A stretch of DNA of 64,000 bases from a virus (IMGVR_UViG_2844225640_000006:1-64000), one strand, 5' to 3'. Positions 31,072-64,000 are shown, counted from the stretch's first letter. A program made the numbers and translations. Notes: generated from the sequence alone by a model not told the origin.

Positions 31072-31079
31072 ATGTGTAT

Positions 31080-31804: not shown

Positions 31805-31898
31805 ATTGCAGCATAAAGGGCAGGGAAAGCCTGCCTTTTGTGAAGCTATTCGGCTTCGATCCCCGCAATTATGCGACAAATGGAAAAGGAAATTCATC

Positions 31899-32465
31899 AT
31901 GGCAAATTTCAAGGTTCTCAAAGGTAACGCGCTCGGTAAAGCTATCGAAGGCCGTGGCGAAGCCATTGCCACGTTCACGGAAAAAGAGCACCAGCTTGCC
32001 TATTCGGCTATCGCTCATTTGGAAGAACACAACGATGCAAAGTATGTGAACGCGCTTTATGCCGTCACGCCGGTTAACTACCGTGCCGGATTGCGTGCAT
32101 GGGTAGGCGCTTTTGCAAAGGCGAAGTTTGAAAAGGAATCGCAGACGTTCGTCTATGCGAAGGGCAAGGAATCGAACCTTGAAAAGGCGCTGGAAATTGC
32201 TCCGGCGAACTATGCCAAGGAATCCAACGCCGGCGCGGGCAAGGCGGCTAAGTCGCTTATGGAACGTGTGGAGTCCGCGGCGAAAAAGGTCATCGAAAAT
32301 GAAGCTGCAAGCCGTGACGACAAGGCTTTCGCTCGCGCCTTGAATAACTTCCTTGCCATGCACAAGCGTGCCCTGACGCAGCCAAAGGCGGAAAAGCCTG
32401 CGAAGCCTGCCCCACGCCTTATCAAGGCGAAGCCGGAAGCAACGGCGGAAGCGAAGGCCGCTTAA
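31899..32465 (+). CDS. Hypothetical early protein, Lys/Ala-rich
   Basis: AAGGA SD, 188 aa, followed by GGGCCGGG..CCCGGC-TTTT hairpin. Confidence 0.75.
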   Translation: MANFKVLKGNALGKAIEGRGEAIATFTEKEHQLAYSAIAHLEEHNDAKYVNALYAVTPVNYRAGLRAWVGAFAKAKFEKESQTFVYAKGKESNLEKALEIAPANYAKESNAGAGKAAKSLMERVESAAKKVIENEAASRDDKAFARALNNFLAMHKRALTQPKAEKPAKPAPRLIKAKPEATAEAKAA

Positions 32466-32779
32466 TCTGAAAAATCGACAGGGCCGGGTCCGAATAGGGC
32501 CCGGCTTTTCCGTGAACCCCTGCAAGGGCGCTTTCGCGCGCCTTTTCACGGCTTCACGCCGAATGCAGACGCCTAGCAGTCTATGTGCCGCCCGTCATTC
32601 GCCGGAAAGGTTCGACCTCCGATATGGTGCAATCCTCTTTTGCACGGGTATGTCACGGAATGCATAGGCGCGATGATATGAGCGGAAAACAGATAGGCCA
32701 TAGAGCCGATGGCACCGCAAAAAGATCTAGCCGCTAGGCGTCTGCGCCCACGCAATCATGCGCTCATGGAGAAATTGTC

Positions 32780-32965
32780 ATGCTTTCACGCCCGGAATCC
32801 GTCCGGCGGCAGGCTGATTATGCGCCTTTCCGCCACCCACATTTTGAGACTGCCAAGGCCGCACAACGTGCCGCTTTCCTGCGCGAGCTCGAAGAGTCGG
32901 TCAAGCGGTCTGACGCCATGCGCGCACGCCTTTCAACCGCTCGCGTCTTGGAGTCACTGCAATGA
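32780..32965 (+). CDS. Hypothetical early protein
   Basis: GGAG SD and ANYA hairpin upstream; coupled to next ORF. Confidence 0.6.
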   Translation: MLSRPESVRRQADYAPFRHPHFETAKAAQRAAFLRELEESVKRSDAMRARLSTARVLESLQ

Positions 32966-33324
32966 AAACCATTCTCGCCGCACTCGCCTTCCTGCCTGTT
33001 TCGCTCCCGCATGATACGGCGCCTATTCCGCGCCCCGACATGCCTGCGCAATATGTCGTGGTCGCGTTCGACAAGGGCTTCACAAAGGCAACTGTCATCG
33101 AAGAATTTCGCGACATTGACGACCTCGAAGCATGTGTCGACGTCGCGCAGTCGTCCGGTGAAGGCCAGTGGACTTCATGCGTTCCCGTAACAGGTGAGGC
33201 TGAAGCGTATGCGCTCGCCGAACCAACGGACTCCATCGCCTGCCTTTTGGCCGCAATCCAGCCCACTGACGCGAACCTTGAAGCGTGCACGGGCATTCCG
33301 GTAGCGGAGTCGATCCATGAATAG
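32962..33324 (+). CDS. Hypothetical, possibly exported acidic protein
   Basis: MKTILAALAFLP signal-like N-terminus, 4 Cys. Confidence 0.6.
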   Translation: MKTILAALAFLPVSLPHDTAPIPRPDMPAQYVVVAFDKGFTKATVIEEFRDIDDLEACVDVAQSSGEGQWTSCVPVTGEAEAYALAEPTDSIACLLAAIQPTDANLEACTGIPVAESIHE

Positions 33325-33514
33325 CGTTTCGACCTGTCATCTCCCACTCGCCGCGCCGGGACTTATCAGCTTCCGGTGCCGCTCGCCTTTTGGCTGGATC
33401 ATGATCGGCGCGCACGATCCCGACGACGCCATGTCTCAAGCCCGACGTTCCAGCGAGTCCGCAAGCCGTGACACGCTGCAAATATGGAACGGCTCGCGCT
33501 ATGTGCCGGTGTAA
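33317..33514 (+). CDS. Hypothetical early protein
   Basis: GGAG SD; FRCRSPFGWIMIGA.D..DAM..A.RS. Confidence 0.65.
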   Translation: MNSVSTCHLPLAAPGLISFRCRSPFGWIMIGAHDPDDAMSQARRSSESASRDTLQIWNGSRYVPV

Positions 33515-33518
33515 CGCC

Positions 33519-33710
33519 ATGCCGCGCCATTGGGAAACACACCTATACACCTACGCCGTCGCCTACCAGCAAGGCGACAAGATCAAGCCTGAAAACCTTG
33601 CCGGTATGCGCCGCAAGGCGCTTTTGCACGGCCATACAGAAGGCCAATGCCTGCGAGTCGAGCAAGATCCCGGCCTTTACATTCGCACCGGACGCCTAAG
33701 CCCGGTCTAA
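33519..33710 (+). CDS. Hypothetical early protein
   Basis: 63 aa ORF filling the gap in the operon. Confidence 0.45.
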   Translation: MPRHWETHLYTYAVAYQQGDKIKPENLAGMRRKALLHGHTEGQCLRVEQDPGLYIRTGRLSPV

Positions 33711-33754
33711 CCCGCACCCCGCACCCTGCAACTATGCACGAAAGGAAACGCGCC

Positions 33755-34009
33755 ATGAGCAACCCCGCTCAAGCCGCCCTGTCACGCGCCGTCAACCGCG
33801 CAATCGCCAATGGCTCGCCTGTTGTCGTGAACGTCCCGCCGCGTATTGCGCCTGGATACCGCGCCTTTACCGGCCATGTTTTCACGGCAACGCAAGCGGC
33901 GGCTTACAACGCCGCGCTTGACCGATTCGAGCGGTCGCCGAATGAGGCGAACCAGAATGGCGCGCACAATCTTTTCTATTCCATCGCCTTGACCGGAAAG
34001 GAAGCATGA
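33755..34009 (+). CDS. Hypothetical early protein
   Basis: ANYA hairpin and AAGGA SD upstream. Confidence 0.65.
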   Translation: MSNPAQAALSRAVNRAIANGSPVVVNVPPRIAPGYRAFTGHVFTATQAAAYNAALDRFERSPNEANQNGAHNLFYSIALTGKEA

Positions 34010-34179
34010 CCGTGCGCAAACTGAAAGCATTTCTGCTTGGGATGCGGGAGTTCCGCCTGTCCATTACATGGGCTGACCCCGCTCGCACCGACGACTGCGA
34101 CTATACCGGGCTTGACGAATCCTACGACAGAGGCCGGGAATTTGCGCACCGTCTGACCCTGCGCGCCTTCGACGGCTGA
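34006..34179 (+). CDS. Hypothetical early protein (57 aa)
   Basis: ATGA overlap, AAGGA SD; FLLGMREFR..YDRGREFAHRLT. Confidence 0.6.
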   Translation: MTVRKLKAFLLGMREFRLSITWADPARTDDCDYTGLDESYDRGREFAHRLTLRAFDG

Positions 34180-34227
34180 CTACACCTTTCACCACCCGCA
34201 AACATGCGAAAAGAGGAGATCCGCGCC

Positions 34228-34419
34228 ATGAAAGCGCCCGTTGCATACACATACGTCATATTGAACGAACGTCGCCGCTCGACGGCCCGCTGGTCGCTGG
34301 CAATCCAGTTCCCGAACGGAATCCTTGAGCGCCTCACGACATACAAAAGTCGTTACCGCGCCGTGTCCGCCGCAAAGACTCTCGCCGTCGGCTCCTGCCG
34401 CATAGAGGTGCGCGCGTGA
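34228..34419 (+). CDS. Hypothetical early protein
   Basis: ANYA hairpin and GAGGAG SD upstream. Confidence 0.6.
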   Translation: MKAPVAYTYVILNERRRSTARWSLAIQFPNGILERLTTYKSRYRAVSAAKTLAVGSCRIEVRA

Positions 34420-34825
34420 AAGATGCACTCCGCGAACTGGCTGACTTCCTTTGTTACGACGTCATGCCTGCCGTGGTCGTTACGGCCTTCATGCTTGTTT
34501 TCTGGGCTGTCGCGATAGCGATCCTGCCACAATAGTTTGGCCTCTGCCCCCGAGGCTGACTTCCGATCCCTCAAAACCGGAGGTGTCCCATGCGCCGGGC
34601 TTTTAAAGCCGGCTGACCCAACTCGGCGGGAAATCCGCGTGACCGCCCGCCCTCGTAACCGGCGCGCACCCCCTCGCAATCATGCAACAGAGAAAATTAT
34701 GTCTTTTGAGACCGTCTTTATCGCCATCGGCTTAATTCATATCGCCGCTTCGCTCGTCGCCTACCGCCTTTTGTTGCGGAGCAGGTAACGCTTTCACCCG
34801 CAACCATGCATATGAGGAGATCAAC

Positions 34826-35611
34826 ATGAATGCCGCCCTGCCGCTCATTGTGAGCCTGAATTGCGGGTGTTTCTTCCGTGGTCGGTTCCTGATCGAGACG
34901 CCCGAATGCGAAGAGCATCGCAAGCTCGACAGCCTCGACGACGAACCGACCGAGTTCAAGTTCGACCAGCTGTCCGACCGAGCGAAAGAACGCGCTCGCG
35001 AGAAATTCCGCGACGGCTATCTCAACTATGATTGGTGGGATTCTGTCTATGACGCCGCCGTTACCATCGCCGAAATGATGGGCATAGAGATAGATGGCAC
35101 CGCGCGGCAACCATCAATACAGTTCTCCGGCTTCTGGTCGCAAGGTGACGGCGCGTCGTTTTCAGGGCGCTGGACCCCATTGGCCGATCCGCTCGCCTCG
35201 CTCAACAAGGTGATGGAATACGCGCCACTGGACAAGGAACTGCATTCACTCGCCTTCGATCTGGCGTTGCTTTCCGAAGGATGCCGCGATCTCATTCCCA
35301 ATGCCTATGTCCGCGTCACCAACTCTGGATATTATTCACACTCCGGCAGCACGCATTTCGACATTGACCTGCCGCTCCCCGACAACATCGACGAGGACAA
35401 CGAACTGCAAGTCATGGTCTATGAAGCCTTGCTCAAGGCTCGCGATCTGGACTTCGACTCATTCGAGGACCGCATCAAGGCAAGCCTGCGCGGCTTCATG
35501 GACTGGATATATGACCAGCTTGAGACCGAGCATGACTGGCTCATGTCCGATGAAAACATTGACGAGGCGCTCGCCGATTACAACTTCGATGAAGAAGGAG
35601 AGTTGCTTTGA
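34826..35611 (+). CDS. Conserved acidic phage protein
   Basis: F.F.QLSD.AKE.AR, I.FSGFWSQGDGASF, WIY.QLE.E.DW motifs. Confidence 0.75.
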   Translation: MNAALPLIVSLNCGCFFRGRFLIETPECEEHRKLDSLDDEPTEFKFDQLSDRAKERAREKFRDGYLNYDWWDSVYDAAVTIAEMMGIEIDGTARQPSIQFSGFWSQGDGASFSGRWTPLADPLASLNKVMEYAPLDKELHSLAFDLALLSEGCRDLIPNAYVRVTNSGYYSHSGSTHFDIDLPLPDNIDEDNELQVMVYEALLKARDLDFDSFEDRIKASLRGFMDWIYDQLETEHDWLMSDENIDEALADYNFDEEGELL

Positions 35612-35820
35612 TAGCCGAGTTCTCAACCTATCTGCGCATCTTTGACGTGACCACGTTTGTCTCCGCCGCACAAGAACGAGCCAGAAACGAAGGCGTCGAC
35701 GAGAATGACGTCAAAGAAATGTACAACGAGTCCAACTTGGACAATTGCCTCATCATGTTGCTCGATCCATCCACGCTTCCCGGTTGCGAAATCCTCGAAA
35801 GTAACGCCGAGATTGCCTGA
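35608..35820 (+). CDS. Hypothetical acidic protein
   Basis: AAGGAG SD, TTG start overlapping upstream stop. Confidence 0.55.
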   Translation: MIAEFSTYLRIFDVTTFVSAAQERARNEGVDENDVKEMYNESNLDNCLIMLLDPSTLPGCEILESNAEIA

Positions 35821-35856
35821 CACCCCGCCAACTATGGCACCACAACGGAGACTCCC

Positions 35857-36762
35857 GTGAATATCATGACCAATCCTCAATCCGTTTCCTCGGTCCTCGC
35901 CAGCCGCGCGATGATTGTTTCCCTGTCCATCTCGCAATGGTCAGGCCGTCGCCTTGACCGGCAGATCACCGACGAGGTCAACCAGAACCACGGCGCTGCC
36001 GCCGACGCTGGCCGCTACAACAAATTGCTCCTCCCGAAGGAAGCATTGGCGGAAATCGTATCCATCGTCGGCGAAACCCGCTCGGACTTCCTCAAACGCA
36101 CCTTGCCTTGGATGGACAACGGTAGCCGCATCATGGCAAGCGATGCATATTTGCAGCATATGTCATGGGTGCGCGGTCAGGTCGCCAAGTTCGACCGGGC
36201 TGTCGACAAATTCCTCGCTGACTACCCGCAATATGTGGCCGATGCCCGTGTCCGCCTGAACGGCATGTTCAAGGACGACGACTACCCCGACGCTCAAATC
36301 TTGCGCAGCAAGTTCGGCGTTGCCTGCAAGGTTCTTCCGGTCCCCACCTCGGAAGACTTCCGCGTGGACATGAGCCAGGCACAAGCTGACCGCATCCGCG
36401 AGGAGATCGAACAGCAAGTCTCCGACGCCACCACGGAAGCGGTGCGTGATGTTTACCGCCGCGTGGCAGACGTCACAGGACGAATGGTCGAAAGGCTCAA
36501 CGCCTACAAGCCAGCCGGTCGTCCGGGTGACAAGACGGAAGGCGTGTTTCGCGACAGCCTTGTCGAGAATGTGCGCGATCTGATTAGCGTCTTGCCCGCG
36601 CTCAACATCATTGGCGACCGCGAGCTTTCCGCCATGGTCGAACGGCTCAAGCCATTGGCCGAGCACAATGCGTCGACCCTGCGCGATAGGCCGGAGATCC
36701 GCCGCGACGTAGCCGATGAGGCTCAGAAAATCCTCGACAGCGTCTCCGGCTTCTTGGCCTGA
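35857..36762 (+). CDS. DUF3150-like protein
   Basis: SISQWSGRRLD, K.LLP, TLPW...G.R, F...DYP, FRDSLVEN, LPALN; usual neighbour of MoxR/vWA genes. Confidence 0.7.
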   Translation: MNIMTNPQSVSSVLASRAMIVSLSISQWSGRRLDRQITDEVNQNHGAAADAGRYNKLLLPKEALAEIVSIVGETRSDFLKRTLPWMDNGSRIMASDAYLQHMSWVRGQVAKFDRAVDKFLADYPQYVADARVRLNGMFKDDDYPDAQILRSKFGVACKVLPVPTSEDFRVDMSQAQADRIREEIEQQVSDATTEAVRDVYRRVADVTGRMVERLNAYKPAGRPGDKTEGVFRDSLVENVRDLISVLPALNIIGDRELSAMVERLKPLAEHNASTLRDRPEIRRDVADEAQKILDSVSGFLA

Positions 36763-36774
36763 GACAAATAGAAT

Positions 36775-36988
36775 TGCAGGAGCGAGGCGCCCGCTCCTGC
36801 ATTTGGCGTGGCATGGCTTGGTAGGGCGCGGCGGGGCAGCGCATGGCAGGCATGGCATGGCGCGGCGTGGTATGGCTCGGCTTGGCGCGGCAGGCTAGGC
36901 GCGGCTAGGCGAGGCGCGGCGAGGCAAGGCGCGGCGAGGCCGGGCAGGCTCCCACCCAAAAGCCGCCGCTCTCTGAAAAGGGAGCGGC
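36775..36988 (+). ncRNA. GGY-NN pentamer array 1 (candidate guide RNA): 8+8+10 pentamers separated by GGCA
   Basis: Array 36805-36949; 10-bp hairpin 36775-36801 before and 9-bp hairpin 36965-36988 after. Confidence 0.8.
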
Positions 36989-37081
36989 ACCTCAAAGTTC
37001 TCCTCTTCACCGGGGAGCCTTTTGAGGTGTCAGAACGGCACTACGAACCCAATGCAATCATGCATCCAAGGAAACATGTTC

Positions 37082-37759
37082 ATGGCAAAAGCAGCAACCA
37101 AAGTCGAAACCGGAATCACTCTTCCGAAGCTCAACATCCAGCTCATGGAAGTGGTGGTCATCGGCGACTCCCCGCTCATCGTCCACGCTTGGTCTGAAAA
37201 GGCCAAGAAGGAAATGCTGGACAAGCAGTTGAAGGTAGCGAAGGGCGCTCGTGAAGCGAAAGACCCTGTCGCAGACTTCCAGAACACTATGTATCGCTTC
37301 GAAGACGGCGGTCACGGCTTCCCGTCCATCGCCTTCAAGGCGGCAGCTGTCACCGCTGGCACATCCGTTGCGGGACTCACCAAGATCGCAGCGAGACAGG
37401 CGTTTCATATGCTCGGCGAGAACGCCGACATTGCCGGTGCTTTTGATGGGGCGCAGTCCCGCACGAACCTCGTGCGAATCCTCGGCTCCGAACCCCAGAT
37501 GCGTGAAGACATGGTCAGGGTCGGAATGGGCACGGCAGACATCCGCTACCGTGCGGAATACCCGGATTGGCACGCAAAACTGCTCGTTCGCTACAATGCA
37601 AACGTGCTGTCCGAAGCACAGATTCTCAACCTCATCAACGTGGCAGGCTTTGCTGTCGGCGTCGGCGAATGGCGCCCCGAAAAGGACGGCAATTACGGCA
37701 TGTACCATGTCGCCACCGAGAAGGAACTGAAGGCGCTTGGTGTGCAATCACCGGGCTGA
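37082..37759 (+). CDS. Stand-alone Cas7/RAMP-like protein (candidate Vipr-type RNA-guided effector)
   Basis: 225 aa; VVIGDSPLIVH first strand, FPSIAFKAA helix motif, C-terminal Gly loop GVGEWRPEKDGNYGMY. Confidence 0.75.
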   Translation: MAKAATKVETGITLPKLNIQLMEVVVIGDSPLIVHAWSEKAKKEMLDKQLKVAKGAREAKDPVADFQNTMYRFEDGGHGFPSIAFKAAAVTAGTSVAGLTKIAARQAFHMLGENADIAGAFDGAQSRTNLVRILGSEPQMREDMVRVGMGTADIRYRAEYPDWHAKLLVRYNANVLSEAQILNLINVAGFAVGVGEWRPEKDGNYGMYHVATEKELKALGVQSPG

Positions 37760-37765
37760 AACAAT

Positions 37766-37916
37766 ACAGGGTCGCGTTGCCATCGTGGCCCTGTTTAGGC
37801 GAGGTATGGCAGGCAAGGCAGGGCTTGGCTGTGCGAGGCAGGGCGCGGCGGGGCAAGGCCGGGCAGGCTCACCCACCAGCGGCCAAGGGGCAGCATTCAA
37901 CCGCCCCATTTCTTTT
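37766..37916 (+). ncRNA. GGY-NN pentamer array 2: 2+10 pentamers
   Basis: Array 37798-37868; 11-bp hairpin 37766-37794 before; GGGGC..GCCCC and T-tract after. Confidence 0.75.
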
Positions 37917-37942
37917 CAACAACCAACAGAGGAGTAGCTGCA

Positions 37943-38488
37943 ATGGTAAAGATTGCATCTTACGGCTTCGCAGAGGGTTCCCGTTTCCAGAAAGGCGCGA
38001 ATACTTCCGCCCCCGAACTGGTCGGTGAACACCTTGAGACTATCCGCAAGGCGAAAGACGGTAAGCTCACACCCGACGACGTGGTGGCCGACGCTCGTAA
38101 TCCCAACTCTCCGCTGCATTCGTTCTTTGAGTGGGACGATTCAGCAGCAGCTCATGAGCACCGGCTTCGGCAGGCTCGCCAGCTGATCCGCACGATCGTT
38201 GTGCGCTATCAGGAAGTCGAGTCCAAGGAACCGATACGGGCCTATGTTAATGTCCGCTCACCCAACAGTGACAATGGGAATGAACCGGACAGCGATGAAC
38301 CACGTCAGTATTACACCGACACGATCGAAGCGCTCTCTGCCCCTGACATGCGAAGGGCCGTGCTTCTCCGGGCAAAGTCCGAGCTTGACGCTTGGCGCAA
38401 GCGATATGCCGACCTCGAAGAATTGTCCATCGTCGTGCGGACCATCACCAAGATGTCCGAAAAAGTCGGCGAACTGGCTGATGCTTGA
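37943..38488 (+). CDS. Conserved phage protein, candidate accessory of the RAMP/array system
   Basis: G.LTP..VV..AR.P.SPLH..FEWDD..AA...RL.QARQLI; GAGGAG SD; lies between arrays 2 and 3. Confidence 0.7.
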   Translation: MVKIASYGFAEGSRFQKGANTSAPELVGEHLETIRKAKDGKLTPDDVVADARNPNSPLHSFFEWDDSAAAHEHRLRQARQLIRTIVVRYQEVESKEPIRAYVNVRSPNSDNGNEPDSDEPRQYYTDTIEALSAPDMRRAVLLRAKSELDAWRKRYADLEELSIVVRTITKMSEKVGELADA

Positions 38489-38504
38489 ACCCAAACAAAT
38501 AATT

Positions 38505-38612
38505 GGCGTGGTGGGGCAGGCAGGGCTTGGCATGGCAGGGCTTGGCTTGGCCCGGTGCGTCTCGTTTCGGCAGGCAAACACGGGGATTCGTTCGCGGCTC
38601 CCCTTTTCTTTT
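38505..38612 (+). ncRNA. GGY-NN pentamer array 3: 2+10 pentamers
   Basis: Array 38505-38575; GGGGA..TCCCC and TTTTCTTTT after. Confidence 0.75.
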
Positions 38613-38641
38613 CAGCAATCATGCAAACTAAGGAGACGAGC

Positions 38642-39055
38642 ATGAGTGTGCGCAATCTTCCATCGCCTGTTCGATTCCTCCTCATCCCGGTACTCGGCGA
38701 CATCAAAGAGGAACGGTTTACGGTTGCGCCCGCCACGGTGGTTCCCCGTGCCAAACTATTGGAGCATGTGCGGACGTTCTTCGACGAACCAATCGAGCGC
38801 GTGAACGTGCTCTATCGGGGCGAGTACCGCGATATGTTCGTCGGCGAGACGTCGGCCATCAACGGTCGCCACATCCGCAATATCCGGGCGACCGAAGTCT
38901 ACCGGGCAAATGCGCTGGAAAATCACTGGCGTCTCAATTCACCCGACCCGACAAAGGCGAAGCCTATCGATTTGTCGTGGACACTCGACCCTGAAATTCT
39001 ACCGGCCATCTCTGGTCCGGCGGTTCTGTTCCCAGATTATCAAGTGTGGGAATAA
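38642..39055 (+). CDS. Hypothetical protein
   Basis: TAAGGAG SD; ERV.VLY.G...DMFV.E, N.RAT..YR.N, I.GPAVLF. Confidence 0.7.
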   Translation: MSVRNLPSPVRFLLIPVLGDIKEERFTVAPATVVPRAKLLEHVRTFFDEPIERVNVLYRGEYRDMFVGETSAINGRHIRNIRATEVYRANALENHWRLNSPDPTKAKPIDLSWTLDPEILPAISGPAVLFPDYQVWE

Positions 39056-39072
39056 CCCCGAAAGGAAACCCC

Positions 39073-39252: not shown

Positions 39253-39294
39253 CTCTCAACATCCCGCCAAGCATGGCAAACACGGAGAACTTCT

Positions 39295-40296
39295 ATGAAC
39301 CTCAAGTCCGCAACGACTCTGCTCAACCACTTCATTGACGCCGACATTCCGGCATTCATGTGGGGCCCTCCCGGCGTCGGCAAGTCCGCTTCGCTGCATC
39401 AGATTGTGACCGAGCGTAAATGGGGAATGGTGGACTTCCGCGCTTCGACCCGTGACTCGGTGGCGTTGATGGGCCTGCCTGATATTTCCGGCGAGACCAC
39501 CCGCTGGAAAGTGCCGGACGAATTTCCGCAGGCCGAACGTGACGGCGAGGAAGGCATCCTGTTTCTCGACGAACTGAACGCCGCGCCACCTTCGATGATG
39601 GCGGCAATGTTTGGCCTGGTCCTTGACCGCAAGGTCGGCGACTACGTGCTGCCCAAGGGCTGGCGCGTAGTTGCGGCTGGCAATCGTCAGGCTGACCGTG
39701 CTGCGGCACAGCGTATGCCTACCGCTCTCGCTAACCGCTTCGCTCACATCGACGTCGATGCAGATACGAGCGCCGGACATGACAATGTCCACGTCGAATA
39801 CTTCAATCAGATCGGCGTTGATCCGCAGCTCATTGCCTTCCTTCGGTTCCGTCCGGCACTGATCCATTCGATGCCGAAGAATGATGAGCGTGCGTTCCCA
39901 ACGCCCCGTTCGTGGGAACAGGCGGCGAAGATCCTGAATCTTCCGACGGCACTCCGCCTGCAGGGTGTATCCGCTATCGTCGGTGAAGGCGCTGCGGCTG
40001 AACTGGAAGGATTCCTTCGTGTTTACCAGAACTTGCCTTCGCTAGATCTGGTACTCGCCAATCCGAACAGCGCGCCTATCCCGGAAGACCCGGCGGCTCG
40101 CTTTGCAATCTCCGCTGGCCTTGCCCGTAAGGTTGATGAGCGGTCTTTCGACAACGGCATGGCTTACATGCAGCGCTTGCCTCGTGAGTTCGAGATTATG
40201 ATGTGCGTCGATGCGGTGCGTCGTGAACCGAAGCTCAGCCATACGCAGACGTTCACTTCGTGGGCCATGAGAAACCAAGACGTCACTCTAGGCTGA
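39295..40296 (+). CDS. MoxR-like AAA+ ATPase
   Basis: GPPGVGKS, ILFLDELN, VAAGN, ALANRF, FPTPRSWE. Confidence 0.9.
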   Translation: MNLKSATTLLNHFIDADIPAFMWGPPGVGKSASLHQIVTERKWGMVDFRASTRDSVALMGLPDISGETTRWKVPDEFPQAERDGEEGILFLDELNAAPPSMMAAMFGLVLDRKVGDYVLPKGWRVVAAGNRQADRAAAQRMPTALANRFAHIDVDADTSAGHDNVHVEYFNQIGVDPQLIAFLRFRPALIHSMPKNDERAFPTPRSWEQAAKILNLPTALRLQGVSAIVGEGAAAELEGFLRVYQNLPSLDLVLANPNSAPIPEDPAARFAISAGLARKVDERSFDNGMAYMQRLPREFEIMMCVDAVRREPKLSHTQTFTSWAMRNQDVTLG

Positions 40297-40300
40297 TGCC

Positions 40301-40633
40301 ATGGCAGAAATCCGCGCCATCTTCGGCCCTTACAAGACGGAAGAACAGACCTCGCGCATCACTTGGTTCTTCTCCGGCGTCCGAGCGGACGGGGAGTTCA
40401 CGGCGTGGTCTCTCCGTTTTCAATTCGATACGCGGCGCTATACGTGCCGCGTCATCAAGAACAAGCAGGCAGCAAAGTATGCCGCGTCCATAAGTCATAA
40501 AGACTTGTTCAGCCTCCCCGAAGCAGCGCGGTCGGAAGTCAGTTGTGGCCGCGTGACGGACATGCTCAAGGCCAAGCTTTCACCAGAGCAAATCGCTCGG
40601 GCTACGGCGCTGGCTATACAATACAGGAGGTGA
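40301..40633 (+). CDS. Hypothetical protein, paralogue of next gene
   Basis: IRAIFGPY .. LKAKLSPEQIARATAL. Confidence 0.6.
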   Translation: MAEIRAIFGPYKTEEQTSRITWFFSGVRADGEFTAWSLRFQFDTRRYTCRVIKNKQAAKYAASISHKDLFSLPEAARSEVSCGRVTDMLKAKLSPEQIARATALAIQYRR

Positions 40634-41013
40634 TGATGGCCATCATTCGCAGGGTCTTCGGTCCCTTCCACCCTGAACACATCCATCCGGGCACGCAGGC
40701 TGAGGAGCTGCGATGGCATTTCATCGGCATCAAGGACGACAAGACGACAGCACACTGGACATTGGTCTTTGACCCTCGCAAGCGAACTTATCGGGTCAAC
40801 AACAATACCAGCAGCGGCGGCTTGATTGGCCGCAGCCGAAAGGCATTGATCGCCCAAAAGATAGATCCGGGTGTCAATTGTGAGACTGCTCACCCCGACG
40901 CCTGGCTCGACGACTCTCCAGTCATGGAGGGCACCATCACCAGCATCCTGAAATCGAAACTCTCACCAGAGGATATTGCCAGGGCGACCGCGCTGGTAAT
41001 CGCAAGGAGATGA
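40633..41013 (+). CDS. Hypothetical protein, paralogue of previous gene
   Basis: IRRVFGPF .. LKSKLSPEDIARATAL; AGGAGG SD. Confidence 0.65.
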   Translation: MMAIIRRVFGPFHPEHIHPGTQAEELRWHFIGIKDDKTTAHWTLVFDPRKRTYRVNNNTSSGGLIGRSRKALIAQKIDPGVNCETAHPDAWLDDSPVMEGTITSILKSKLSPEDIARATALVIARR

Positions 41014-41016
41014 ATC

Positions 41017-41310
41017 GTGCTGACTACCGACGTCATCATGAACAACTTCAGGAAGAGCGACCACGCTGACAATCGCTGGAGCTTTGCTCCGCTTCCCGAA
41101 ACCGTTCTCAACACGCACCTTTACTACCTTTCGTTCATCAAGCAGGAGCGGCGGTTCATGCTGTCTCGAAAGCAGATCGTGCCCTTCATCCCGATCGAAG
41201 ATGACGAACTCCTGCAGGCGTTCAAGGCGACACTGCATGCAGACGAAGTGGCTGCGTGCATGAGATCCACTCTCGATCAGGGCGTCGACCCGGATGACAT
41301 TCCATTCTGA
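41017..41310 (+). CDS. Hypothetical protein
   Basis: AAGGAG SD, GTG start; ends DDIPF, like an SSB acidic tail. Confidence 0.55.
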   Translation: MLTTDVIMNNFRKSDHADNRWSFAPLPETVLNTHLYYLSFIKQERRFMLSRKQIVPFIPIEDDELLQAFKATLHADEVAACMRSTLDQGVDPDDIPF

Positions 41311-41325
41311 TACACGGAGGCCAAC

Positions 41326-42483
41326 ATGAAAACCGAAGACAAGATCCTCGCCGCACAGACGTCGCTACTTTGGGACCAGCCATTCTTTGGCGTCCTCATG
41401 CTCCAGCTTAAAAAGGTGCGGGTGGATGACCCGAAGAAGGTCGATACGATGGCGACAGACGGCCGTCATCTCTTCTACCACCCGCCCTTCGTCGATGAGC
41501 TGAAGAAGGACGAGCTGGTTTTCGTGCTGGCCCATGAGGTCATGCACAACGCCCTGGAGCATCACATCCGACGCCAGTCCCGTAAGCCCGGCCGCTGGAA
41601 CGATGCCTGCGACTACGCCATTAACGGCGAGCTGGTCGAATGCAAGGTCGGCAAGATGCCAGAGCGCGGCCTGCTCGAGGCGCGCTTCACCGGTCTTTCA
41701 GCCGAGGAGATCTACCGTATCCTCGACGACGAGAACAACGGCGACGACTCCGCTGAAGGGCAGGGCGATACCGGTGGTTGCGGTGGAACGATGGATGGCT
41801 GCGCACAGCACGACGAGGCAGCCAAGGCCGAGCTGCGTGCCGAGATGCAAACGCAGATCAGGCAGGCTGCCATGACCGCCAAGGCTGCGCAGGCTGGTAA
41901 ACTTCCGGCTGGCGTGCAGCGTATCATCGACGAGCTGCTCATGCCGAAGGTCGACTGGCGGGCTGTTCTCCGCCGCTTCATCGACGAGTCCAGCACCCGT
42001 GATTTCTCATGGTCGAGGCCGAACCGTCGCCTGCTTCCGCTTGGTCTGGTTACTCCGGGCACAGTTTCGGATGGCGTCAGCCATATCGTGATCGCGGTTG
42101 ACACATCTGGCTCGATCGACGAGCCCACGCTCAATGCCTTTGCTGCCGAGGTGCGGGGAGCATTCGAGGAAGGCTCTGTCGACAAGATCGACGTGGTCTA
42201 CTGCGATGCAGCCATCAACCACACAGAGCAATTCGAAATGGGCGACGAGCTGTTCATCCGTGCGGTAGGCGGGGGCGGCACTCGCTTCTCGCCTGTCTTC
42301 GAATGGGTGACCGAGAAAGCAGCCGACACCAAGCTGGTGATCTACCTAACAGACTTGCTCTGCAATGACTTCGGCGACGAGCCGCACTGCCCGGTTATCT
42401 GGGCGCACTATGGAACGAAGAGCCAATTTCAGCAGCTCAGCCCCAACGTTCCGTGGGGTGAGTGCGTACACATCGAGCCTTAG
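41326..42483 (+). CDS. DUF2201-type metallopeptidase-vWA protein
   Basis: TMATDG, HEVMH (HExxH), WN.ACDYAIN, VDTSGS, GGGGT.F.PVF, YLTD. Confidence 0.9.
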   Translation: MKTEDKILAAQTSLLWDQPFFGVLMLQLKKVRVDDPKKVDTMATDGRHLFYHPPFVDELKKDELVFVLAHEVMHNALEHHIRRQSRKPGRWNDACDYAINGELVECKVGKMPERGLLEARFTGLSAEEIYRILDDENNGDDSAEGQGDTGGCGGTMDGCAQHDEAAKAELRAEMQTQIRQAAMTAKAAQAGKLPAGVQRIIDELLMPKVDWRAVLRRFIDESSTRDFSWSRPNRRLLPLGLVTPGTVSDGVSHIVIAVDTSGSIDEPTLNAFAAEVRGAFEEGSVDKIDVVYCDAAINHTEQFEMGDELFIRAVGGGGTRFSPVFEWVTEKAADTKLVIYLTDLLCNDFGDEPHCPVIWAHYGTKSQFQQLSPNVPWGECVHIEP

Positions 42484-42492
42484 GAGGAATAA

Positions 42493-43128
42493 TTGCCCAT
42501 CTTACTCGACCTGACTGGCCAGCAGTTTGGCCGGTTGATTGCTATAGCCAGAGATCCAACCGCACGCCCTACACGCTGGTCATGCAGATGTGAGTGCGGC
42601 AACACGAAAGTCGCTGCCACGAACGACCTCAGGCAGGGGAAAACGAAATCCTGCGGCTGCTTGAGAGTTGAAGTGACCGGGGGAAAGAACCGCACCCACG
42701 GTCTGCGACAGCACCCCCTCTACGATGTATGGCAAAGCATTAAAGACAGGTGCCTAAATCCTAACAATCCTCAGTTCAAAGATTATGGCGGGAGAGGAAT
42801 AAAAATCTGCGATGAATGGGCGCACGATGGCGCTGCGTTCATCGCATGGGCAGAAGCCAACGGCTACCGCGCCGGCCTCATCATCGATCGCGAGAATAAC
42901 AATTGGGGATACAGCCCCGAGAATTGCCGGTTCGTTACGCGGAAGACCAGCAACCGCAACAAGCGGAACACCAACTACATCGACACTCACCTCGGTCGCA
43001 TGATGCTGGCTGAAGCGGTCGAGATCTCCGGCTTGGGCAGGGACACCATCCGACGCCGCTTAAAGTTGGGATGGCCCGCATCAAAGATCCTTCAGCCCGC
43101 CCGAGCGATGAAGAAGAGCAGCAAATAA
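42493..43128 (+). CDS. HNH-like (homing) endonuclease
   Basis: DLTG..FGRL, W.C.CECG, SCGC, RC.NP....YGGRGI..C..W, IDR.NN...Y.P.NCR. Confidence 0.8.
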   Translation: MPILLDLTGQQFGRLIAIARDPTARPTRWSCRCECGNTKVAATNDLRQGKTKSCGCLRVEVTGGKNRTHGLRQHPLYDVWQSIKDRCLNPNNPQFKDYGGRGIKICDEWAHDGAAFIAWAEANGYRAGLIIDRENNNWGYSPENCRFVTRKTSNRNKRNTNYIDTHLGRMMLAEAVEISGLGRDTIRRRLKLGWPASKILQPARAMKKSSK

Positions 43129-43157
43129 CCCACCACCCGGCATGAAAGGATAATTCC

Positions 43158-43469
43158 GTGCCCCACACACAAGGACCGTGGGCGGTCGACGACTGCCCGC
43201 TCGACATCGAACATGCCTGCACCATGCTCAAGGTCGATGCCAATACGCCACGAGAATGGGTGGGTATCTGCACCCCTCGCGATGCGGACGGCAACTACGA
43301 GCACGTTGCTTACTGCCACATATCGAATGCTCCGGTGATCGCAGCCTCCACAGTGATGCTGGATCTCCTGCGCCGCAATCTCAATGCGTGGGAAGACGAA
43401 GAGGATTCCGTGCAGGAAGAGCACGAGGAACTGATCGTCGATCTGCGCCAGTTTCTGAAGGACAAGTGA
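43158..43469 (+). CDS. Hypothetical protein
   Basis: HT.GPW..NA..IAA..ML..L phage motif. Confidence 0.65.
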   Translation: MPHTQGPWAVDDCPLDIEHACTMLKVDANTPREWVGICTPRDADGNYEHVAYCHISNAPVIAASTVMLDLLRRNLNAWEDEEDSVQEEHEELIVDLRQFLKDK

Positions 43470-43470
43470 C

Positions 43471-43683
43471 ATGCCTAGCTATCTCGTCACATGGGAGATC
43501 GACATCGATGCCGAGACCGCACATGACGCGGCTCGGCAGGCACATGAGATCGTCCGCCGGCCGGATACATCGGCCAATGTCTACAAGGTCATCGAACATG
43601 ACAGTAGCAGCGAGACGGTAACGGTTGATCTTGAAGAGGACGCGCCTCCACCGCCTCCAGATTGGAACGTGCGTCATGGTTAG
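43471..43683 (+). CDS. Hypothetical protein
   Basis: YLVTWEIDIDAE...AAR.A. Confidence 0.65.
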   Translation: MPSYLVTWEIDIDAETAHDAARQAHEIVRRPDTSANVYKVIEHDSSSETVTVDLEEDAPPPPPDWNVRHG

Positions 43684-43730
43684 CCAGCACCTTCGAAACA
43701 CCACTCGCAATCATGCGAAAGGAAGAGAAC

Positions 43731-44315
43731 ATGACGACCAAGTTCCGCGATCAACAAAGCTTCAACCACCTCCAGATGGAGGCAGCTCTCTGTGCCTGGG
43801 AATGGATGCTGGAGAACAACACGCACGAGATATTCAACGGTATGTTCGATAGCCATGGCTACGGCGCGATGCGCCATTGCGCCATGCAGGCCGGCGACAT
43901 TGCCAACCTGGTTTACAAGCATATGGAAGTGCGGGGTTACGAGTTCGTCGACGCCTACGATTGGGAGTTCGTGCCGGGCGTGCTGCTCCGACTGGATTGG
44001 GAGAAGCTCTTCATGGACAACCAGTACAACGAAGAGCCTTACCAGCCTGACATTCACGCCATCTTCTGCGCCATGGTCTCCGCCGACTTGGCAGCTCACA
44101 CCGACCCGCAGCGCCGCAGCTTCCAGAAGAAAGAAGACACTGCAATCTGGATCACCAAGGCCCGTGCTGAAGCCGAGAAGCAATGGGGCTACAGCGATCT
44201 CGTCTCCGATCACCCGGAGAAGGTGACGGCTGCCATGGAGCGCGACGAAGATCCGGCCGAGTTCATCAAGTGGCTCGGCGAGAAATACAATCTCACTCCG
44301 GCGCCGGGGTTGTGA
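43731..44315 (+). CDS. Hypothetical protein
   Basis: ANYA hairpin and AAGGA SD upstream; 194 aa. Confidence 0.7.
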   Translation: MTTKFRDQQSFNHLQMEAALCAWEWMLENNTHEIFNGMFDSHGYGAMRHCAMQAGDIANLVYKHMEVRGYEFVDAYDWEFVPGVLLRLDWEKLFMDNQYNEEPYQPDIHAIFCAMVSADLAAHTDPQRRSFQKKEDTAIWITKARAEAEKQWGYSDLVSDHPEKVTAAMERDEDPAEFIKWLGEKYNLTPAPGL

Positions 44316-44318
44316 CGC

Positions 44319-44504
44319 ATGCAAGACTTCGTCGTCACAATGACCCTCGAACTCGTCGTTGAAGCCGACAACCCCGGCTCGGCTGTGTCCGATACGGTCA
44401 TCCGCCTGCAGAAATTGCTTGAAACTCACGACCCGCTGCTGTTGAGTTCTATGCTACGGGAGGCGGTTGCTTATACAGCTGCCAAATCTCCCTGTAGGAT
44501 TTAG
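44319..44504 (+). CDS. Hypothetical protein
   Basis: 61 aa ORF in the operon. Confidence 0.4.
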   Translation: MQDFVVTMTLELVVEADNPGSAVSDTVIRLQKLLETHDPLLLSSMLREAVAYTAAKSPCRI

Positions 44505-44522
44505 CGGGCAAGGGAGGCTCAA

Positions 44523-44729
44523 ATGGAAGAAGGCTTTTTCCATTCACCATTCAACATCATCGCTATTGGAATCATTCTCTTCTTCTATTTCATGCCGACG
44601 ATCTTTGCATTTCGCCACGGACGACCCGACTCGTGGGCTATATTGATTATCAATACAGCTTTCGGGTGGACGCTTATCGGTTGGATTGGCTCGATGTTCT
44701 GGTCGATGGCTCCTGTCCAACGGCAGTAA
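44523..44729 (+). CDS. Superinfection immunity protein (T4 Imm-like)
   Basis: YF.PT..A..........I..IN...GWT.IGW....WS; GGAGG SD. Confidence 0.88.
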   Translation: MEEGFFHSPFNIIAIGIILFFYFMPTIFAFRHGRPDSWAILIINTAFGWTLIGWIGSMFWSMAPVQRQ

Positions 44730-44824
44730 TGCACTCCTCATAAACACACCAAAGGCCGGGTCATTCGCCCGGCCTTTTCTTTTCTACCCCCTCGCAATCA
44801 TGCGACCCCACGGAGATCTATACC

Positions 44825-45985
44825 ATGAGCAATATCGACAACGTCACCGCCACTGTTTCGACTGCTTCTCTCAACTACTCGGTTTTCAGGAAGGCTATTG
44901 AGAACGCCTGCAAGATCGTCGAACGTCGCAACATCATCCCCGTTCTCGATACCGTCCTCATCAAGGCGACGACGAATGGCGTCTATGTTCTCGGCACTGA
45001 CCTCGACATCTGCACCACGACCTTTGTGCCGGGCAATGTATCCAAGGACTTCACCGCTCTGGTCGATGCTCACAAGCTCAAGGCCACAATGGATAAGGTG
45101 AAGGATGCTCCGGCCATCAACTTCGCCATGTCGCAGAAGAAGCTCACTGCCAACATCGGGAAGCTGAACCTGACATTGAAGCAGGATATTCCAGCCGAAG
45201 ATTTCCCTGAAAGCCACGCCTTCCGGGACCGGTTGAGTGAGTCAAACCATACGTTCACGCTGCCGTCAGCCACGCTGCTCAAAATCCTCAACAAGGTCCA
45301 GTTCGCTATCTCCACGGAAGAGACGCGGTACTATCTCAACGGCGTGTATATGCACGTCATCGAGAACTCGCACCACATCACCTTCGTCGCCACGGACGGC
45401 CACCGGCTGGCTCGATATGAGATGCCTGCGCCAGAAGGCGCAAACGGTATCCCCGCTGTCATCATCCCTCGCAAGACAATTGTTGAACTGATGCGGCTCC
45501 TCAAGCGCAAGGGCTGCCCGGAAGAAACGATGATCACGGTTTGCAAGACCGGCGTTCGGTTCACTGTCGGCGAGGACGAGACCGTGGACAGCAAGGTCAT
45601 CGACGGACAATTCCCGGATTACACCCGCGTCATCCCTATGAACAACGATCACCACGCCACGATCTATCCGGCTTCCTTCATTGACGGCGTCAAGCAGGCC
45701 AGCGCGGTTCTCCCTTCAAAGGGCGGCTCGGTCTCGGTCAACTTCCTGCGGGGGATAGCCTCTCTCACGTGTCGTGATGTCGACTTCGGTGAAGCATCCG
45801 TCGATGTCTCGATTGAGAACGAGCGGTCGCTGGAGATCGGATTCAACGCCCAATACCTGATCGACATCCTTTCGCACGTCGATGGTGAAGCGAAGTTCAT
45901 GCTCATGGGCGCTGGAGATCCGGTCGTCATCCGCAACTCGGACGATGATTACCTGACCTTCGTTCAGATGCCGACGCGCATCTAA
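44825..45985 (+). CDS. dnaN: Phage-encoded DNA polymerase III beta sliding clamp
   Basis: RNIIPVL, TDLD, FAISTEETRYYLNGVY, VATDGHRLA, SK.IDG.FPDY.RVIP, IGFNA.YL.D, MP.R. Confidence 0.9.
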   Translation: MSNIDNVTATVSTASLNYSVFRKAIENACKIVERRNIIPVLDTVLIKATTNGVYVLGTDLDICTTTFVPGNVSKDFTALVDAHKLKATMDKVKDAPAINFAMSQKKLTANIGKLNLTLKQDIPAEDFPESHAFRDRLSESNHTFTLPSATLLKILNKVQFAISTEETRYYLNGVYMHVIENSHHITFVATDGHRLARYEMPAPEGANGIPAVIIPRKTIVELMRLLKRKGCPEETMITVCKTGVRFTVGEDETVDSKVIDGQFPDYTRVIPMNNDHHATIYPASFIDGVKQASAVLPSKGGSVSVNFLRGIASLTCRDVDFGEASVDVSIENERSLEIGFNAQYLIDILSHVDGEAKFMLMGAGDPVVIRNSDDDYLTFVQMPTRI

Positions 45986-46077
45986 CCACCCTCCGTCACA
46001 CCTCAACACCCACTGCGATGGCGCTCCTCTCGGGGCGCCATATCGGGGCGTGTTGCCCTTTTTCAACGGAGAACAAT

Positions 46078-47043
46078 ATGAAAAAGTTTAGCATCATCTT
46101 CATCGCATCCCTCGCTCTTTCGACCTCGTCTGCCCTTGCTTCCGATGGCTGCACCGGCAGTGCCACGCTTATGAAGTGGCTTCAGGGTTGCCGCGATCTT
46201 CCGAGCAGCGTGCGGGTTATCGACCACTCCGGTGGCGACCGCACCCCAGGCGCTAAGAGCTCCTCGGGTGGTAACGGTGCAGCCAGTGGCGGAGAGTCCA
46301 GCGCCAATGCTGGCGGCAATTCCGGCGGAACCAGCGGCACTACCAACAACGGCAACTCCGGCGGCTCCAGCAATGCTGGCAACTCTGGCGGCGGCAGCAA
46401 CGGCGGTTCGAACTCCGGCAGCACTGGCGGCGGCAGCAACGGCGGTTCGAACTCCGGCAGCACTGGCGGCTCCACGGGTGGAAACACTGGCGGCTCCGGC
46501 AATTCCGGTGGCGATACTGGTGGTAACTCCGGCGGTGATACCGGTGGGAACAACGGTGGAAACACTGGCGGGGATACCGGCGGTAACACCGGAGGCGGCA
46601 GCGACAACGGCGGCGGCGACACCGGTGGCAATACCGGCGGAGGTGACAACGGCGGTGGCGGTGACACTGGCGGGAACAACGGCGGTGATAATGGCGGTGG
46701 CGACACTGGCGGCGGTGACACTGGCGGGAACAACGGTGGCGACAACGGAGGGGATAATGGTGGCGACACCGGCTCCGGCGGTAACAACGGCGGCCACAAT
46801 GGCGGAGACCACACCGGCAACGGCCCAGGTAATGGCAATGGCAACGGCGGCAACCACGGCAATGGTGGCGGAAACAACAACGGCTCCGGTCCAGGTTCGG
46901 GTAACGGCGGCCACAACAACGGCAATGGCAACGGTAACGGTAACGGCCATGGCAACAGTGGTGGCAATGGTCACGGCAATGGCGGTGGCGGCAATGGAAA
47001 CGGAGGCGGTAATGGCGGTGGCGGAAAGGGTGGCCGCCACTAA
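46078..47043 (+). CDS. Exported Gly/Asn-rich low-complexity protein
   Basis: Signal peptide MKKFSIIFIASLALSTSSALA, two Cys, then a long G/N/S/T/D repeat tract; 39-bp tandem duplication 46385-46462. Confidence 0.7.
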   Translation: MKKFSIIFIASLALSTSSALASDGCTGSATLMKWLQGCRDLPSSVRVIDHSGGDRTPGAKSSSGGNGAASGGESSANAGGNSGGTSGTTNNGNSGGSSNAGNSGGGSNGGSNSGSTGGGSNGGSNSGSTGGSTGGNTGGSGNSGGDTGGNSGGDTGGNNGGNTGGDTGGNTGGGSDNGGGDTGGNTGGGDNGGGGDTGGNNGGDNGGGDTGGGDTGGNNGGDNGGDNGGDTGSGGNNGGHNGGDHTGNGPGNGNGNGGNHGNGGGNNNGSGPGSGNGGHNNGNGNGNGNGHGNSGGNGHGNGGGGNGNGGGNGGGGKGGRH

Positions 47044-47124
47044 CCCATAATCCACACACAACAAGCGGGGCACTTCGGTGCCCCGTCCATCATCCCGCCA
47101 AACATGGCAACCACGGAGATTGAA

Positions 47125-55556: not shown

Positions 55557-55598
55557 ATGTCTGGCATTATTGCCGGGGTGAATGCTGTAGGCTTTAGG

Positions 55599-63924: not shown

Positions 63925-64000
63925 CCGCATAGATCGTGGCGCCGACCTCTCGGCGTCACCCACCCTTCAAGCATGAAGTACGTAGTGAAATTGAGGAACA

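Follow-up and report, generated by a model that had tools for sequence, protein, structure and literature searches.

The question raised by this locus is why a hairpin of three to five base pairs recurs directly in front of the translation signals of one early phage gene after another. The DNA concerned, bases 1-64000 of the viral record IMGVR_UViG_2844225640_000006 (these 64,000 nucleotides, taken as a whole, are referred to here as the window), is part of a 72,494-bp record classed as a provirus, with a G+C content of 57.7%. A preliminary description had listed thirteen such mini-hairpins between 31864 and 47108 and had proposed that they form a regulon acting at the RNA level. Judged from the sequence, the hairpin motif is a genuine signal, because compensating mutations preserve its base pairing, and it most likely represents an RNA tag within a modular translation-initiation leader. 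Its occurrence is restricted to one phage family.

All thirteen stem-loop-stem strings were found on the plus strand where they had been placed, and each of them (13/13) carries the loop A-N-Y-A that had been claimed. The first, CGCA-ATTA-TGCG (31864..31875), precedes the conserved first-cassette gene at 31899-32465 (phrog_1448-like), and the site orthologous to it changes pair type among relatives. It is followed by CGCA-ATCA-TGCG (32751..32762, before the gene at 32780), TGCA-ACTA-TGCA (33727..33738, before the gene at 33755), and CGCA-AACA-TGCG (34197..34208, before the gene at 34228). Three of the thirteen have stems of three pairs, as had been written: GCA-ATCA-TGC at 34676..34685, before an open reading frame (ORF) of 29 amino acids at 34699; GCA-ACCA-TGC at 34800..34809, before the gene at 34826; and GCA-ATCA-TGC at 38615..38624, directly 3' of a terminator-like hairpin and T-run at 38582-38612. 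GCCA-ACTA-TGGC (35827..35838) stands before the DUF3150-like gene at 35857, the five-pair ATGCA-ATCA-TGCAT (37052..37065) before a gene starting at 37076 or 37097 (phrog_4652), and GCCA-AGCA-TGGC (39266..39277) before the MoxR-type ATPase gene at 39295. The five-pair TCGCA-ATCA-TGCGA occurs at 43705..43718, before the gene at 43743, and again at 44792..44805, before the beta-clamp gene at 44825 and 16 nt after an intrinsic terminator-like site (44751-44785). The last hairpin, GCCA-AACA-TGGC (47097..47108), precedes the DUF4942/methyltransferase gene.

These strings are far more frequent than base composition would predict. The window contains GCAANYATGC 12 times, where 100 dinucleotide shuffles gave 1.18 +/- 1.16, and CCAANYATGG 4 times, where they gave 0.67 +/- 0.70; none of the 100 shuffles reached 12 or 4, respectively. 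In the strict form N-CAANYATG-N', with complementary flanks, the motif was counted 17 times on the plus strand of the window and twice on the minus strand, the four plus-strand matches beyond the thirteen lying at 31347, 35022, 54260, and 63967. For all thirteen, the minimum-energy fold of the 24-nt context is the hairpin itself. The match at 31347-31356 (GCA-AATA-TGC), in the leader region of the operon, lacks a C-run, a Shine-Dalgarno sequence and a start codon, was left unscored by the covariance model at E <= 10, and could be a chance string or a decoy.

The anatomy of the hairpin was described from a larger set. A covariance model (R1), built from an alignment of sites (A1), was joined by a looser pattern scan; the 103 model matches comprise 99 distinct rows and 102 distinct places, in 387 kb. 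Columns 19-26 read C-A-[A-N-Y-A]-U-G, with C19, U25, and G26 invariant over the 99 rows and column 20 being A in 95 and G in the remaining 4. The full A-N-Y-A loop is present in 83/99 rows (A21 in 88, Y23 in 95, A24 in 98), and this conservation of unpaired bases therefore points to sequence-specific reading. Below the invariant core, pair 18-27 is Watson-Crick in 99/99 rows (GC 63, CG 33, UA 3), and pair 17-28 is paired in 73/99 (GC 33, CG 28, UA 12), the others being mostly C.A. Paired cells amount to 93.4%, against 11.6-41.2% when the partners were slid, and 0/500 shuffles reached the observed covariation. When sites were sorted by their downstream protein, 19 ortholog groups of two or more were obtained, and the Watson-Crick type switches within 3 of the 19 at pair 18-27 (clamp, DUF3150-like, and first-cassette gene) and within 4 of the 19 at pair 17-28. 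The covariation of the stem proposed in the preliminary description thus takes the form of compensatory changes at two positions, also within orthologous sites. In the Ancylobacter-type lineage (L011) the loop-closing A-U has become G.U at most sites, which favors pairing on the sense strand because G.U pairs can form on that strand only. The outer pairs are unsupported: pair 5 is formed in 6/70 and pair 6 in 7/70, and pairs 5-11 do not rise above slid controls. Pairing of the C-run with the Shine-Dalgarno sequence, considered as a candidate, is not supported on the same figures for pairs 5-11.

The position of the motif is as regular as its structure. Downstream of it, 101 of the 102 places have a Shine-Dalgarno-like sequence, then a start codon and an ORF no shorter than 25 amino acids, an arrangement seen at 678 of 5000 random positions. 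The start codons at these 101 sites are ATG (85), GTG (10), and TTG (6). That the element is not symmetric and lies in gene sense, as had been noted, was borne out, and the gap from the end of the stem to the Shine-Dalgarno sequence is 3-8 nt in 89/101 sites; from the same point to the start codon it is 6-32 nt, mostly 13-20 nt, at the sites of the family. C makes up 58% and G 5.6% of the eight bases 5' of the stem, in genomes that have 29.3% G, and the 3' spacer is 49% A, 34% C, 11% T, and 5.6% G; flanks so poor in G therefore fit a lone hairpin kept in unstructured RNA. Within the plus-strand operon of the window, on the gene calls made for this report, the motif is found in each larger intergenic gap; it is missing from two gaps of 32 and 37 nt, and genes that overlap or abut the preceding gene have none. 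The ATG within the motif was considered as an upstream start and rejected, as it is in frame with the real start at 32/101 sites, the chance level, and no Shine-Dalgarno sequence precedes it. Just 3' of the stop codon of the HNH gene (43129-43160) are a C-run, a remnant GGCATG, a Shine-Dalgarno-like sequence and a GTG start, which looks like a decayed copy of the motif, now without loop and 5' arm.

Over the whole 72.5-kb provirus, the looser scan and the covariance model together gave 16 sites, none in the structural region. All 16 are in the sense of the downstream gene, so that the coding-strand placement held when counted by strand across the genome. The sites added in this way are TTCA-AGCA-TGAA at 63966..63977 (plus strand; model E 0.0016), in the rightward recombination operon; GGCA-ATAA-TGCC at 55563..55574 (minus strand; model E 0.00018), with the loop ATAA; and one at record position 69773-69784, outside the window (plus strand; E 1e-5), which was absent from the model training set. 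Because the copy at 55563-55574 precedes a minus-strand gene, the motif tracks gene direction and not one DNA strand; gene-sense orientation holds in three operons, which supports pairing in the sense RNA. The same scan and model detected no reverse-complement copies with matching context in the whole record, and the idea of an anti-motif RNA was rejected.

The motif was then traced through related phages and their hosts. Five whole related records carry 15, 14, 5, 13, and 14 sites at E <= 0.01 under the covariance model. A search with the ATPase protein returned seven related viral records at 71-98% identity and, among named genomes, those of Brucella (formerly Ochrobactrum) pecoris and tritici, Pseudochrobactrum, Ensifer, Rhizobium, and Ancylobacter. 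Pattern scans yielded further records with several sites each, all of which carry the same conserved early genes, and also Hoeflea, Peteryoungia, and a second Ensifer contig. The hosts of the motif-bearing prophages are bacteria of soil and roots and belong to the Rhizobiaceae, Brucellaceae (former Ochrobactrum), and Xanthobacteraceae, within the order Hyphomicrobiales. In five host genomes of 4.6-7.0 Mb, 20 of the 30 pattern matches fall on the prophage contig and a reversed control pattern has 1 match, so that the signal is phage-specific and not a host regulon. Beyond the Alphaproteobacteria, collection scans with a 19-base pattern found only single matches, indistinguishable from chance. 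Three model matches at 3400-4000 (minus strand) of an unrelated record of 35% G+C (L049) were dismissed as false positives; since they fall in a coding tandem repeat, the model can yield false positives in repeats. Taken together, asymmetry, gene sense, pairing, and restriction to phages fit a signal acting at the RNA level across early cassettes.

The same module coincides with points of cassette exchange. In comparison with the closest relative (L008), 4 of 10 homology blocks begin within 24 nt of a motif (at 32751, 35825, 38640, and 39265), where about 3% is the chance expectation estimated here. Four of 21 public runs, all of them stored as contigs, were compared as well and showed no RNA ends; in one, a related DNA-like contig has mosaic joints at 32749, 35824, and 38640. 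Because block starts and contig joints coincide with it, the conserved module is also a recombination joint of the hypervariable accessory region. Exchange of cassettes between phages at a shared module would be a by-product.

The operon that carries the thirteen hairpins is preceded by what looks like an elaborate control region. About 850 nt upstream of the first hairpin there is an A+T-rich region with inverted repeats AATACG..CGTATT (30970-31030), which has two 10-mers in common with the promoter region of the immunity region (59590-59660), where a promoter was predicted from sequence (TTGACA-16-TATTAT, 59625-59652). An S24-type repressor is encoded at 58312-58992, and these repeats are candidates for its operators. 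A candidate sigma-70-type promoter, CTTGCG-17 nt-TATTCT, was read by eye on the plus strand at 31043..31071 and is kept in three relatives. It was not flagged by a sigma-70 consensus scan of the plus strand, which returned just one site, at 33079-33106 within a gene, and did not pick out any motif. Further downstream, a putative leader RNA (31132..31257, plus strand) consists of a boxA-like 12-mer (31132-31143) and an irregular hairpin of about 110 nt (31149-31257). The boxA-like sequence was found at this position only; in the relatives, the 12-mer agrees at 11 of 12 bases with a host sequence that lies 245 nt upstream of the 16S gene and that, going by rrn leaders, we take to be a boxA. In eight phages, 89.6% of cells in the leader hairpin are paired, against 36-53% with slid partners, 28 of 38 pairs show double changes, and two invariant G.U pairs are possible on the sense strand only. 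The conserved non-coding leader region spans about 31076-31560 and is closed by a terminator-like hairpin with a T-run (31524..31558, plus strand). It has no Rfam match; no Rfam family reached its gathering score in the window, and 30900-31900 gave chance-level matches only.

A further terminator-like hairpin (31819-31842, plus strand) lies just before the first motif, and two sites resembling intrinsic terminators are located inside the operon, on the plus strand, at 38582-38612 and 44751-44785; the latter, before the clamp gene, is kept in G000, L012, L013, and L028 with differing stem sequences. The region may hold a promoter under repressor control and, behind it, an antitermination leader of the nut or rrn kind. 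Such a leader would carry one transcript through the internal terminators, all mini-hairpins included, and the combination of promoter, antitermination-type leader, and internal terminators favors one long hairpin-bearing transcript. Strong stem-loops without T-runs are also present 10-25 nt upstream of two motif copies (36985-37030 and 47066-47085), and could be processing structures or structures that stabilize a 3' end.

An RNA-level function of some kind for the motif is considered probable. More tentatively, the hairpin is proposed to be a tag, either operator-like or for processing, which a single factor peculiar to the phage family would read. The hairpin would act in cis, forming in the sense RNA of the long early transcript, and the leader module would stand at the 5' border of nearly every independently translated early cassette. 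Read from 5' to 3', the module would consist of a G-poor, C-rich tract, a stem of 3-5 bp with C-G and A-U as its inner pairs, the A-N-Y-A loop, an A/C-rich spacer of 3-8 nt, GGAG, and the start codon. Its reader would be an RNA-binding translational regulator or an endoribonuclease. Proteins conserved in the family, and therefore first candidates, are encoded at 31899-32465, 38657-39055, 40301-41013, 43743-44315, 48740-49192, and 57108-57596. A factor bound 15-30 nt upstream of the start would occupy the 30S landing zone and, being within the region covered by the 30S subunit, would switch all tagged cassettes together. Pairing in RNA, a factor acting in trans, and the direction of control are what we infer here. 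A more far-reaching version, and a doubtful one, makes the mini-hairpin an RNA address label, by which a single factor would switch on or off, or excise, every cassette of the antiterminated operon; genes that recombine in behind the label would thereby become members of the regulon automatically. This factor could be an unrecognized RNA-binding repressor, an endonuclease, or a ribosome-docked adaptor, for which the conserved protein with an RMF/CrpP-like domain encoded at 57108-57596 would be a candidate.

The last-named gene, on the minus strand, specifies a protein of 162 amino acids, the C-terminal part of which matches the ribosome modulation factor family (Pfam PF04957) at 28.8 bits, against a cut-off of 27.9, and lies below the NCBIfam cut-off. 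The protein is kept at 65-75% identity in three related prophages, and in G006 a motif copy lies directly 3' of the gene for a protein of this type.

Several observations weigh against an RNA tag with a reader of its own. The hairpins are weak, with energies of -1.7 to -7.6 kcal/mol and z-scores of -0.63 to -6.05 (13 sites, 24-nt contexts), and 7 of 74 sites have a terminator-like hairpin with a T-run that ends 7-16 nt upstream of them. Orthologous sites have for the most part inherited the same pair type, which leaves far fewer independent events than cells counted. There is no G.U at either of the two covarying positions, and the commonest mismatch at 17-28, C.A (23/99), would pair on the opposite strand only, as U.G. 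Profile scans recognized no RNA-binding protein, nuclease, or coat-like protein among the phage proteins scanned, and the first-cassette protein (AlphaFold model, pLDDT 73.5) has no Foldseek match at E <= 0.001, the best being at E 0.73. Finally, alignment A1 had been selected for complementarity at pair 18-27 and a second alignment, A2, fitted to the structure of the model. For this reason a scan with CAANNATG was run that filtered for context only (C-run, Shine-Dalgarno sequence, and start) and did not demand complementarity; 60 of its 67 matches are complementary, and among the other seven, five are inside genes on manual reading and two have a Shine-Dalgarno sequence that overlaps the 3' arm. 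The first-cassette protein was also considered as the reader itself, on a sub-threshold lead in the ESM Atlas (0.79) to the phiC31 repressor c domain. This lead was not confirmed, with no Pfam match at E up to 10 and none in a sequence search of the PDB.

Other explanations of the motif were weighed against the same evidence. A leader that acts through structure alone, with no dedicated reader, might serve as a plug-and-play ribosome-binding insulator or as a standby site keeping the Shine-Dalgarno sequence open regardless of the upstream cassette, and could also protect a processed 5' end. The low G content of the flanks (5.6%), the narrow spacing to the Shine-Dalgarno sequence, the presence of the module at mosaic joints, where the upstream context changes, and the lack of a reader recognized in profile scans of the phage proteins are all in keeping with it, but it leaves unexplained why the C-G and A-U inner pairs are invariant and why the A, Y, and A of the loop are conserved, and the stems are too weak for a nuclease block or for insulation. 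Pairing of the motif with 16S rRNA was tried and rejected, since complementarity is at the level of chance (duplex -18.0 against -18.4 +/- 2.0 kcal/mol, 200 shuffles), which also speaks against this explanation, and it is judged unlikely. A compact transcription signal in DNA, either a phage-specific promoter or a -10-like pause element that makes each cassette its own unit, has somewhat less in its favor again. It would suit the upstream terminators (7/74 sites, at 7-16 nt, the one at the clamp gene being conserved), and by what we take to be the -10 hexamer and extended -10 consensus, the nominally invariant A21, A24, and T25 would fall at -11, -8, and -7, with G18 as the extended -10 G. The location of the motif at cassette borders would be like that of the PeSLs, as far as the available text describes them (PMC4122927). 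Yet 11 of 99 sites, conserved sites before the ATPase gene included, do not have A at the would-be -11, the would-be -9 is Y in 95/99, and there is no conserved -35 region; a duplex gives no reason for mirror-image compensatory changes, and with the Shine-Dalgarno sequence so close by, the leader would be only a few nucleotides long. The operon, moreover, has a candidate promoter of conventional type and a putative antitermination-type leader, and scans of the phage proteins yielded neither an RNA polymerase nor a sigma factor, so the case for a compact promoter is weakened.

Two further possibilities carry far less weight. The stoperators of Cluster A mycobacteriophages are present in many copies, in a single orientation, in short intergenic spaces of non-structural genes, and the motif resembles them in copy number, in its one orientation relative to transcription, and in its placement. 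They are mentioned in the accessible text of PMC3203893. A DNA operator of this stoperator or multi-operator type, at which a repressor bound to duplex DNA would block elongation through the early cassettes in the lysogen, is nevertheless very improbable here, because it is a different repeat, AATACG..CGTATT, that the promoter regions at 31.0 and 59.6 kb share, and this repeat makes a better operator candidate for the S24-type repressor; nor would one expect a duplex operator to show compensatory pairing, flanks poor in G, or a fixed Shine-Dalgarno spacing. Least probable of all is a hairpin extruded on the template DNA strand, as at the early promoters of phage N4, or formed in antisense RNA. 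On the opposite strand, where C.A becomes U.G, pair 17-28 would be paired in 68/70 sites, against 48/70 in the sense strand, and 36-nt windows fold better as antisense in 70/71; this advantage is what composition alone would give, because folding comes more easily to a strand rich in G and U. On neither strand do pairs 5 and 6 rise above slid controls, the closing G.U of L011 would be A.C on the opposite strand, and protein scans gave no match to virion-type or T7-type RNA polymerase families.

The gene layout of the provirus is as follows. It is flanked by host genes, for a CoA-transferase at 1-1146 and a patatin-like protein at the far end, and the integrase gene is at record position 70013-71095. 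Structural, lysis, and terminase genes, with P2-type tail families, occupy the minus strand from about 1.3 to 29 kb, and all convincing genes between 31.9 and 49.2 kb are on the plus strand. The latter specify a phrog_1448-like protein, a protein with a weak DUF3150-like match, phrog_4652, a MoxR/AAA_5 ATPase, a DUF2201 metallopeptidase/VWA protein, an HNH protein, a superinfection-immunity protein, a beta sliding clamp, and a DUF4942 and methyltransferase fusion. The gene at 37076-37759, which had been called RAMP, did not live up to that name: no Cas or RAMP match was obtained in Pfam, PHROGs function, NCBIfam, or PADLOC, and motif-bearing relatives lack the gene. Genes for DnaB and a primase are on the minus strand at 50.8-53.5 kb, the repressor-like gene occupies 58312-58992, and genes for PDDEXK and RecT proteins follow at 61.6-63.9 kb. 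A tRNA scan found no tRNA, megablast gave no match to the cultured phage collection, and matches of the ATPase protein in that collection are all below 60% identity.

Three regions deserve separate mention. The HNH endonuclease gene at 42493-43128 (plus strand) probably represents a recent insertion between conserved genes, as it has no match in the nine loci searched (eight related loci and L015). The ORF of 341 amino acids at 46018-47043 (plus strand) begins with a signal-like N-terminus, followed by a long low-complexity region rich in Gly, Asn, and Ser; it has neither a Shine-Dalgarno sequence nor a motif upstream, and its first 97 or so residues alone match L008. At 59855-63924 (plus strand), an AAA_23/SMC-like ATPase, which also matches models of the defence ATPases LmuB, PtuA, and AriA, is followed by PDDEXK-like and RecT proteins, and this is more likely a recombination module than a defence system.

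Among described systems, the closest by analogy are the SAS and ESAS of Cluster K mycobacteriophages. In the accessible parts of two reports (PMC3203893, PMC12699233), these occur in a dozen or more copies per genome, in the non-structural half and in one orientation, immediately upstream of starts that are mostly ATG; the host genome has none, the genes behind them are of unrelated families, and their function was still unverified in 2025. According to the same texts, the SAS is a 13-nt string of actinobacteriophages that contains the Shine-Dalgarno core AGGAG, and the ESAS is a pair of 17-bp inverted repeats in which, in the authors' view, the departures do not support pairing in RNA (PMC3203893, PMC12699233). 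The hairpin motif is like the SAS, as described there, in being multi-copy, asymmetric, of one orientation, upstream of non-structural starts, and restricted to phages. It is unlike it in being separate from the Shine-Dalgarno sequence, in its sequence, and in the phylum of its hosts, which here are Hyphomicrobiales. The decisive difference from both elements, so far as these texts describe them, is that the hairpin of 3-5 bp is kept by compensatory changes, pairing being its best-supported feature. The PeSL of T4-type phages is, in the available text, a composite terminator/promoter cassette of which the conserved part is a host-type early promoter (PMC4122927). As with the PeSL so described, a short conserved sequence is found at the borders of variable ORFs, homology breaks and resumes there, and a terminator stem-loop often adjoins; unlike the PeSL, the motif has no promoter consensus, and its conserved part is a hairpin tied to a Shine-Dalgarno sequence. 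Intrinsic terminators differ as well, the 3' flank of the motif being A/C-rich, with 11% T and no U-run.

Phage-encoded control of translation offers other comparisons. The gp43 and RegA operators of T4, and the GGAG sites cleaved by RegB, are RNA sites lying at, or immediately 5' of, the Shine-Dalgarno sequence, by means of which one phage protein governs early messages; RegA and RegB regulate many early genes simultaneously, and the gp43 operator is a single autogenous site. The RegA and RegB sites, unlike the motif, are not hairpin tags, and profile scans detected no homologue of gp43, RegA, or RegB. The preliminary description had likened the loop to the operator bound by MS2 coat protein. 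The MS2/R17 coat operator has an A-N-Y-A loop, a purine bulge in the 5' strand two pairs below the loop, and the start codon within the hairpin. Only the loop consensus proved to be shared, and three of the four defining features tested are missing: columns 17-20 pair contiguously with 25-28, with no bulge column in the 99 aligned sites, the start codon lies outside the stem, and no levivirus-type coat protein was matched in Pfam or PHROG among the ORFs scanned, in what is a prophage of double-stranded DNA. The nut sites of lambda, one or two per genome near promoters, place a small RNA hairpin in the early transcript as boxA plus boxB. The operon leader, with its boxA-like 12-mer and covarying hairpin, resembles lambda nut and rrn antitermination leaders. 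The 16 start-linked mini-hairpins are unlike boxB, as none stands beside the boxA-like sequence, which is confined to the leader; nor do nut sites share their tie to start codons. No published description of the motif was found, the full-text matches listed for its 10-mer being primers and unrelated sequences, and a literature search on Ochrobactrum temperate phages and intergenic repeats gave nothing relevant.

Start-associated repeats of phages have been catalogued for more than ten years without a mechanism. Compared with the mycobacteriophage case, what is new is a base-paired core with compensatory changes, which therefore allows clean mutational tests of stem, compensation, and loop. The motif marks the exchange points of the hypervariable accessory region in these prophages, and the antitermination-type leader beside it is a second RNA element that can be tested separately. 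Should the address-label reading be true, the system would be a hairpin-tagged counterpart of T4 RegA and RegB, and would give start-associated phage repeats their first mechanism. If the hairpin is read by one factor, it would be a portable tag that couples captured accessory genes to control in the early phase, and among the genes tagged in this provirus are those of a methylase, a sliding clamp, a superinfection-immunity protein, and uncharacterized cassettes.

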